Shown: piece after piece, positions 14,276 through 14,793 of the stretch
Numbering within the stretch: the first letter of the stretch is position 1
How the letters are laid out: every line of letters starts with the position of its first letter
NCBI RefSeq assembly: GCF_028689845.1
Contig: NZ_JAQVCH010000014.1
Location: 1,307 to 65,306 of the forward strand
Origin: Flavobacterium sp.
GTDB taxonomy: Bacteria; Bacteroidota; Bacteroidia; Flavobacteriales; Flavobacteriaceae
DNA length: 64,000 nucleotides
Reading direction: 5' to 3'
The notes under the pieces: generated by a model
Told to the model about the DNA's origin: nothing
Database searches by the model: none
The model's input: the letters and a program-made list of their open reading frames with translations, nothing else
Position numbers and translations under genes: made by a program

Positions 14276-14563
14276 TTAATGATTGCTGTAAACATCTTTT
14301 CTGTGGCTGATTCTGATAATTTCTATTTTGAGTTCATTATTTTGAATCGAATACACTACTCTGTAGTTTCCAACTCTAAGCCTATATAAAGAAGTTCCTT
14401 CAAATCAGGTCAAGTAAAAGTTTTTTATTTTTTTACATCAATTTGGAAATGGATTTTCTTGTAGAATTTCAATTTGTGCAATAATCTTAACTCTAGTAGA
14501 AAAGGGAAGCTTTTCAAGTTCTTTTTGAGCTTTTCTATTGAAGACAATCGCATACTGTCACAT
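14276..14563 (-). CDS. RelE/ParE-family toxin with 3 in-frame TGA codons (codon 2, 14438-14440, 14405-14407)
   Basis: Minus-strand translation is M*QYAIVFNRKAQKELEKLPFSTRVKIIAQIEILQENPFPN*CKKIKNFYLT*FEGTSLYRLRVGNYRVVYSIQNNELKIEIIRISHRKDVYSNH. It carries the family hallmarks RVG.YR..Y and HRKDVY. It is not in the ORF track. Confidence 0.8.
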
Positions 14564-14793
14564 TACGCGATTCTATTTCATGATAAATATTGTTTTTTAA
14601 CTTCATCCAAAGAAACAGTAGGCTCATTTATTCTTTCTAATGCGGTTAAACTATCAAAAAAATCCTCCATGATTTCCTTTATACTATTGTTTTTTAAATC
14701 GAATACTACAGCCGTTTTTGTTCCATTTGGACTAGTTAAAAAATTGATTCATTTTCTGATTGATAAGGTTACAGGTAATGTTTTTGTGGACAT
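14563..14793 (-). CDS. Cognate antitoxin with in-frame TGA at codon 15 (14749-14751) and near the C-terminus (14578-14580)
   Basis: Translation is MSTKTLPVTLSIRK*INFLTSPNGTKTAVVFDLKNNSIKEIMEDFFDSLTALERINEPTVSLDEVKKQYLS*NRIA. With readthrough the TAA stop overlaps the toxin ATG as TAATG at 14561-14565. Confidence 0.65.

Follow-up and report, generated by a model that had tools for sequence, protein, structure and literature searches.

The stretch of DNA analysed here, referred to as the window, comprises 64,000 nucleotides (nt) of a Flavobacterium sp. genome assembly (contig NZ_JAQVCH010000014.1, positions 1,307 to 65,306). It carries on its minus strand a toxin-antitoxin pair with five in-frame TGA codons. 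Comparison with homologous loci shows that these codons stand for glycine, as in genetic code 25 (NCBI table 25), and that the pair has evolved under purifying selection as proteins read in this way; neither protein can be made in the standard-code bacterium in which the pair is found. The pair itself is of an ordinary kind. What is unusual is its combination of code, selection and setting, namely an operon readable only in code 25, under purifying selection, with neighbours in which TGA is never a sense codon but sometimes the stop, and with recurrence on several contigs. We favour, with confidence that is about evenly balanced, the explanation that the pair belongs to a family of mobile islands extending across the code boundary: the backbone of these islands would be readable in both codes, the pair and a neighbouring surface protein in code 25 only, and the pair is silent here. 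Whichever explanation holds, the locus provides a concrete handle on genes that cross or exploit a genetic-code boundary, the possibilities being a mobile gene pool shared by code-25 bacteria belonging to the candidate phyla radiation (CPR) and Bacteroidota, or translation that is conditional on a UGA decoder.

A toxin-antitoxin pair in which TGA stands for glycine

The locus consists of the following elements.

14558..14565, minus strand: the TAATGTGA junction, with the antitoxin stop TAA, the overlapping toxin ATG and the toxin codon-2 TGA; read from the sequence, with the same junction in L110, a diverged copy on a metagenome contig
14276..14563, minus strand: RelE/ParE-type toxin gene, 95 amino acids (aa) with TGA as Gly, TGA at codons 2, 42 and 53; assigned from Pfam, RelE structures, invariant residues and the ratio of nonsynonymous to synonymous substitution rates (dN/dS)
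14563..14793, minus strand: antitoxin gene, 76 aa with TGA as Gly, TGA at codons 15 and 72; without Pfam family, with standard-code homologues upstream of RelE toxins

Positions 14558-14565 read TCACATTA on the plus strand, corresponding to TAATGTGA on the minus strand (14565-14558). The toxin ATG (14563-14561) shares one nucleotide with the antitoxin stop codon TAA, and the codon-2 TGA (14560-14558) follows immediately. Under the standard bacterial code (table 11) the toxin frame is reduced to Met-stop, while the antitoxin frame, with its ATG at 14793, ends at codon 15 after 14 residues. A bare ATG-TGA is not significant by itself and it is the surrounding context that gives it weight. It becomes meaningful because the frame 14276..14563 (-), with TGA taken as sense, is an open reading frame (ORF) of 95 aa that matches the Pfam family ParE_toxin (PF05016; E 4.8e-12, 46.7 bits with a cut-off of 23). 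Internal restarts under table 11 would yield at most a 30-aa antitoxin tail and, from a GTG, a 26-aa toxin tail (the toxin was inspected by eye), and neither frame has a usable internal start. A real gene on the opposite strand was also considered. The antisense ORF at 14474..14797 (+), with 107 aa, is open under table 11 and has a counterpart of 111 aa in L110, but it behaves as a shadow frame. Among the six frames, the ratio of nonsynonymous to synonymous differences (pN/pS) is lowest for the sense frames, and over the toxin gene the antisense frame is not open. Such modules escape standard annotation, as table 11 calls just this shadow ORF at the locus.

Conserved glycine positions identify the meaning of TGA. 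Toxin TGA42 falls on the Gly of an N-P-x-P-x-G motif, which is kept in nearly all standard-code homologues, column 65 of the toxin is the conserved Gly of an R-V-G motif, and the standard-code forms P0053 and L111 have Gly opposite antitoxin TGA15. In addition, window and L110 exchange TGA for other Gly codons in the toxin (TGA versus GGG at codon 53, GGA versus TGA at codon 65). As the TGAs occupy conserved Gly columns and are exchanged for GGG and GGA, the alignments show that TGA is Gly in both genes, which supports the code-25 assignment suggested in an earlier note on this DNA. The same columns and swaps rule out tryptophan and selenocysteine, and for the latter five TGA in 171 codons make no case.

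The earlier note had drawn attention to the TGA at toxin codon 2 as a possible gate and had proposed to survey its conservation. It is indeed conserved, being TGA in the DNA of L110 and appearing as 'MW' in P0004 and P0005, two metagenome proteins from gene calls with TGA as Trp; standard-code homologues have Ala or Val at this position. The codon is an ordinary glycine codon (the protein starts M-G-Q-Y) inherited by the whole recoded subfamily, and no purpose-built switch. TGA represents general codon usage rather than a gate, because it occurs in both genes, where it accounts for five of eight Gly codons, and 27 times in a neighbouring gene of 1290 aa. Overall, TGA makes up 26-60% of the Gly codons in the recoded genes of the island in which the pair resides. 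These genes resemble those of Gracilibacteria and Absconditabacteria, where UGA is Gly, in having TGA at conserved Gly columns and in swapping it with GGN. Unlike the genes of code-25 bacteria, the pair lies among genes that use TGA as stop, in a Flavobacterium-type core genome. One TGA is specific to the window: at antitoxin codon 72 (14578-14580) all other homologues have AGA/Arg or Lys, so that this TGA arose either through an Arg-to-Gly change while the gene was read in code 25 or, after its silencing, as a neutral nonsense mutation.

The profile of the toxin family matches the solved RelE structures 2khe, 3g5o, 3bpq and 4fxe, and eight residues which are invariant across seven homologues (R61, R63, Y67, R68, H87, R88, K89 and Y92) are all present in the window toxin. 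The antitoxin belongs to no Pfam family and has a weak RelB-like NCBIfam match (E 0.016). It is encoded by a small gene directly upstream of the toxin gene, with a 1-nt overlap (TAATG), and the same pairing is found in L110, in L111 and on plasmid pSLIN05. The pair is best described as a type II addiction module, consisting of a predicted RelE-type ribosome-dependent mRNA endonuclease and an upstream, translationally coupled, predicted antitoxin. Known modules of the RelBE/ParDE type have the same layout, such as Slin_7034/Slin_7033 on the Spirosoma linguale plasmid pSLIN05, where a small antitoxin gene is upstream of, and coupled to, a toxin of the RelE/StbE family. The antitoxin of that module is homologous to the one in the window (44% identity), and both pairs reside on mobile DNA, the plasmid copy adjoining RepB. 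The two differ in that the plasmid pair is written in the standard code while the window pair, with its five in-frame TGA, is untranslatable by its own host.

This host is not itself a code-25 organism. Long ORFs in the window and in the genome have no in-frame TGA, 111 of the 1465 long ORFs in the genome (7.6%) end in TGA, and the stop codon of the SIS-HAD gene adjoining the pair is TGA at the very position where the L110 homologue has TAA. No tRNA(UCA) was found among the 31 tRNAs of the genome, an assembly of 62 contigs that is 90.8% complete, nor was one found by ARAGORN or Rfam in the island, or in L110. A crude screen and Pfam revealed no other recoded genes in the host genome. Neither toxin nor antitoxin can be made in this standard-code, Flavobacterium-type host and the operon is silent there, as the earlier note had claimed for any host that terminates at UGA.

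Selection and linkage in related loci

L110 carries, in the same order as the window, the genes for an ATPase, a PRTase and a SIS-HAD protein, the antitoxin, the toxin and a small gene termed orf102, and it has the identical TAATGTGA junction. A cassette with a GmrSD gene, present in the window, is absent. Nucleotide identity between window and L110 is 77.5% for the toxin (dN/dS 0.16), 79% for the antitoxin (dN/dS 0.19) and 71.6% for orf102 (dN/dS 0.08). For the genes on the other side of the pair, which belong to a five-gene cassette, it is 60-67% with saturated dS, and dN/dS is 0.08 (SIS-HAD) and 0.21 (ATPase). No frame other than the sense frames is free of TAA and TAG across both genes in both loci. 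With neutral substitutions, the probability that both ORFs remain intact is 0.18 at 5% divergence and 0.0015 at 22%. Decay of homologous loci, an outcome that the earlier note had considered, is not observed; L110 is intact at about 22% divergence and the dN/dS values, which the note had proposed to estimate, indicate purifying selection. Judged by these substitution patterns, the pair has evolved under purifying selection as proteins in which UGA is read as Gly, and it is not decaying. As the module family owes its intact state to selection on this reading, it would have to be translated somewhere else.

The 5′ flank of the pair is 70% identical between window and L110. The idea that the toxin-antitoxin block is younger than its neighbours was dropped, since the 3′ flank is saturated at 52% identity. 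To the left of orf102, L110 has a gene fragment (6225-6437, minus strand) in which about 10 Gly codons are GGN and the only TGA is three codons ahead of a TAA; it is most simply a standard-code gene that ends in TGA and has a back-up stop.

The genes next to the pair avoid TGA as a sense codon. No TGA occurs among at least 100 Gly codons of orf102, the GmrSD gene and the five-gene cassette, nor in 56 conserved Gly columns of orf102 and this cassette. The 23 orf102 homologues have no Trp at four invariant Gly columns. Named relatives of orf102 are all from Bacteroidota (Flavobacterium sp. WP_396142724.1, Chryseobacterium, a Flavobacteriales metagenome-assembled genome (MAG) and Flectobacillus), and in one congener (G021) orf102 is part of an integrase-bearing element that is devoid of the toxin-antitoxin pair.

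A search for the antitoxin in about 1200 Bacteroidota species genomes gave no match among 400 of the same genus and 400 of the same family, and one among 400 of the phylum, which is a standard-code form. Standard-code relatives with 44-51% identity are located upstream of RelE toxins on the Bacteroidota-like contig L111 and on the Spirosoma plasmid pSLIN05, there beside RepB. Antitoxin relatives were found neither in IMG/VR nor in phage records, and orf102 relatives were not found in IMG/VR. Close antitoxin homologues exist in two forms. One has 75 aa with W at codon 15 and is from short contigs called with TGA as Trp. The other has 49-52 aa, starts from a Met just past TGA15 and is mostly from long contigs; L110 yields exactly such a shortened form under table 11.

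The contigs of the shortened antitoxins and those of the closest orf102 homologues match one for one in size (156,066; 204,923; 25,937; 11,035 and 1,323 bp). On the four longer of these five contigs no toxin of at least 52 aa has been called, as expected if the toxins there are also interrupted by TGA. The block of orf102 and the TGA-bearing pair thus occurs on at least seven contigs, L110 and the window included, the linkage on the others being based on equal contig sizes.

The arrangement in the window is confirmed by independent assemblies. The stretch occurs in 17 runs from 7 studies, and Logan contigs span all junctions with no mismatches and even depth. These contigs cover 5000-8658 and 9115-15779 (run X1), 5000-8226 and 10845-17362 (X2) and 14440-15167 (X3). 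Bridging contigs come from three studies (landfill, a metagenome and manure) and carry identical alleles, which rules out an assembly chimera. The W-form proteins P0002 and P0003 were called on a contig of 6665 bp, which is the X1 contig and not an isolated island. Run X7 has contigs with at least 99% identity over the LytTR/SBF/surface-protein part and over 18.3-19 kb, with no cover of 12005-18075, at a depth too low to conclude; there may be a variant of the island without the pair and part of the cassette.

The accessory island and the translation of its recoded genes

The first 32.8 kb of the window form an accessory island of about 33 kb, with a tetranucleotide composition in the 91st-99th percentile of the genome. 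Its main features are as follows.

3561..5102, plus strand: large serine recombinase
8123..11995, plus strand: gene for a surface protein of 1290 aa (DUF5122 propeller, Ig-like, SLH) with 27 in-frame TGA, the second code-25 gene of the island
12096..12404, minus strand: orf102, DUF960-like, TGA-free
12445..14057, plus strand: inserted cassette with a GmrSD_N+HNH gene (12574..13917; 31 Gly codons, none of them TGA), absent from L110
15095..22156, plus strand: TGA-free five-gene cassette (SIS-HAD, PRTase-CE, ORC/CDC6-like ATPase, a gene of unknown type, PfkB)
27559-30462: Eco57I-like methylase/endonuclease
32870..32944, minus strand: tRNA-Asn, where DNA conserved in the genus resumes, right edge of the island

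Genes 1-3 of the five-gene cassette are syntenic with the pair in L110, where the contig stops inside the ATPase gene. In the surface-protein gene, 27 of 103 Gly codons are TGA. A contig from manure run X3 lacks one T of a T8 run in this gene (window 8143-8150, about codon 10), which would cause a frameshift and represents either incipient decay or, at depth 7, a homopolymer error. The island also contains a NUMOD4 protein, a GNAT protein and a weak GIY-YIG-like match. It has no phage structural or replication genes.

According to the explanation that we favour, the pair would be silent cargo of a defence island of about 33 kb beside tRNA-Asn in a standard-code host, and would be translated elsewhere, most likely in code-25 bacteria. 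The backbone, orf102 and the five-gene cassette, would be free of TGA because the island family circulates across the code boundary, with the pair and the 27-TGA surface protein as its code-25-only parts. Related elements have been described among phages. Liu et al. 2023 (PMC10746230) predicted TGA-free phages, compatible with code 11, for Gracilibacteria and Absconditabacteria; 5 of 9 co-targeted code-11-compatible phages match spacers of Bacteroidetes, and some phages that clearly use code 25 have matching spacers in standard-code bacteria. Those code-11-compatible phages, like the island, have backbone genes without in-frame TGA that are readable in both codes, and a link of Gracilibacteria elements to Bacteroidetes spacers is reported for them. 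Unlike them, the window holds a chromosomal defence island, which has code-25-only genes and genes ending in TGA as well.

Several observations weigh against this explanation. A copy of the recoded subfamily was not found in a demonstrably code-25 genome: a scan of genome contigs gave 48% identity at best, as did a sample of 400 Patescibacteria genomes. A draw of 151 Patescibacteria genomes, in which no TGA occurs inside EF-Tu, seems to hold no code-25 genome, and two candidate donor genomes both had release factor 2 (RF2). Relatives of orf102 and of the standard-code forms of the pair are from Bacteroidota. The long contigs that carry the block (156 kb and 205 kb) were gene-called with table 11, which points to residence in standard-code genomes and not in code-25 cells. 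The island as a whole is not code-neutral, since TGA is the stop codon of four of its genes, which would be 7-51 codons longer if read on to the next TAA or TAG. Finally, prfB, the gene for RF2, was not found in the host assembly, though it is present in 11 of 12 congeners; prfA is present (C35:9168-10232). We consider this probably an assembly gap, with the gene unassembled, because the assembly is 90.8% complete and the genome uses TGA stops.

An alternative is that the island contains a single, recent and dead import of Gracilibacteria or Absconditabacteria DNA, in which case the other copies would represent the donor lineage and the arrangement would not be maintained. The code-25 signature, the identical alleles in three studies, the failure to find the module in 400 congeners and the intact recoded gene of 1290 aa next door, which suggests a recent arrival, are all in line with this, and the 1-nt deletion in the T8 run of the big gene could be a first step of decay. 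However, L110 has the same order of orf102, pair and cassette with flanks that are saturated in divergence, and TGA is never used for Gly in orf102 and the cassette, contrary to what long-term residence in code-25 genomes would lead one to expect. Furthermore, the orf102 family is from Bacteroidota, and table-11 contexts are implied by the shortened antitoxins (52 aa) called on long contigs. A code-25 operon that co-diversifies with TGA-free neighbours on at least seven contigs is not explained by a one-off dead import, which we regard as unlikely. The earlier note had offered a non-functional import from a code-25 donor as its conservative reading; of this, the code and the silence in the present host hold, while the intact, selected copy in L110 and the recurrence beside TGA-free genes leave the idea of an import without function incomplete.

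The bolder proposal of the earlier note was a tripwire, that is, a toxin gated by a suppressor tRNA. In its extended form, the module would be kept in islands of standard-code Bacteroidota and translated only with the UGA-to-Gly decoder of an invader, for example a code-25 phage with a tRNA-Gly(UCA), and would then act in defence or as a code sensor. The state of the homologous locus, which is intact and under purifying selection instead of decaying, leaves this idea standing, although with a small probability only. It would also agree with the recurrence of the block next to a TGA-free Bacteroidota gene on at least seven contigs, the long ones called in table 11, with the location in a defence island, and with signs that the lineage of the host has met code-25 DNA (the 27-TGA gene). 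Spacers of standard-code bacteria that match clearly code-25 phages (PMC10746230) point in the same direction.

The design of the locus argues otherwise. The antitoxin is closed too, and with no more TGA than the toxin (2 versus 3 in the window, 1 versus 3 in L110). Since the antitoxin is gated with fewer TGA, suppression should result in a neutralised complex or in antitoxin excess, and not in free toxin. The positions of TGA drift like those of synonymous Gly codons, as expected of general codon usage, no tRNA(UCA) was found, a suppressor-carrying invader of this host is not known, and no copy was detected in the about 1200 Bacteroidota species genomes searched. Stop-closed toxin ORFs that become active only with a suppressor tRNA are used as kill switches in synthetic biology, but these engineered systems close the toxin, while in the window the antitoxin is closed as well. 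To our knowledge, no natural nonsense-gated toxin under the control of a suppressor tRNA has been described.

In phages whose code differs from that of their host, only TAG=Gln and TGA=Trp were observed in a preprint (Borges et al., bioRxiv 10.1101/2021.08.26.457843), and Trp would be placed on conserved Gly positions here. These phages are similar to the locus in that in-frame stops prevent the translation of some genes as long as no suppressor is present, with recoded and standard genes side by side; they differ in carrying the machinery for the code change, whereas the window has TGA as Gly and no suppressor was found. A natural role of the TGA-bearing RelE pair as code sensor, kept in defence islands of standard-code Bacteroidota, constitutively transcribed and translated only upon entry of a UGA=Gly decoder, is in our view improbable. 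If true, translation of the module would itself signal invasion.

It is highly unlikely, though conceivable, that the island is a mixed-code mobile element resident in Bacteroidota, in which the pair and the surface protein are recoded and read by an undetected UGA decoder of the element itself. The gene-scale mosaic of TGA-sense and TGA-free genes has this appearance, recoded prophages in standard-code hosts have been described, and just 35-40% of the genomes of recoded phages have a suppressor tRNA that can be detected (Borges et al., bioRxiv 10.1101/2021.08.26.457843). However, tRNA-Asn is the sole tRNA which ARAGORN and Rfam detect in the island, none was found in L110, and the lack of phage structural or replication genes and of relatives in IMG/VR or phage records does not suggest such an element.

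An assembly or binning artefact, in which code-25 DNA of a co-occurring CPR bacterium was wrongly joined to Flavobacterium DNA, might be suspected from the 62 contigs and incomplete state of the assembly and from the atypical composition of the island, but is almost certainly not the explanation, given that every junction around the pair is bridged by the Logan contigs from landfill, a metagenome and manure, with no mismatches and flat depth, and that the diverged contig L110 has the same mosaic.

Signals flanking the pair

Three candidate signals were noted around the toxin-antitoxin block.

14824..14851, minus strand: sigma-70-like promoter match TTGCTA-N16-TATACT upstream of the antitoxin, a consensus match only
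14140..14165, strand not assigned: terminator-like hairpin downstream of the toxin, partly conserved in L110
14058..14100, minus strand: 43-nt element at the 3′ edge of the block, 91% identical to L110, with the imperfect inverted repeat CACAAT...CTTGTG

L110 has TTGAAT-N16-TATAAT at the same position as the promoter match. A Bacteroidota-type promoter motif was not found upstream of the L110 cassette, which is uninformative. An Rfam scan of the toxin-antitoxin locus gave no match.

The 43-nt element is single copy in the window and in the genome. With 91% identity it surpasses the genes in conservation, whereas the remaining 3′ flank is saturated. Compared to L110, the GmrSD cassette is a discrete insertion of 1.6 kb precisely at the boundary of the orf102 and toxin-antitoxin blocks, which has the appearance of a cassette-like modular exchange inside the island. 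As the insertion is right beside the 43-nt element, this element may be a site of recombination or insertion.

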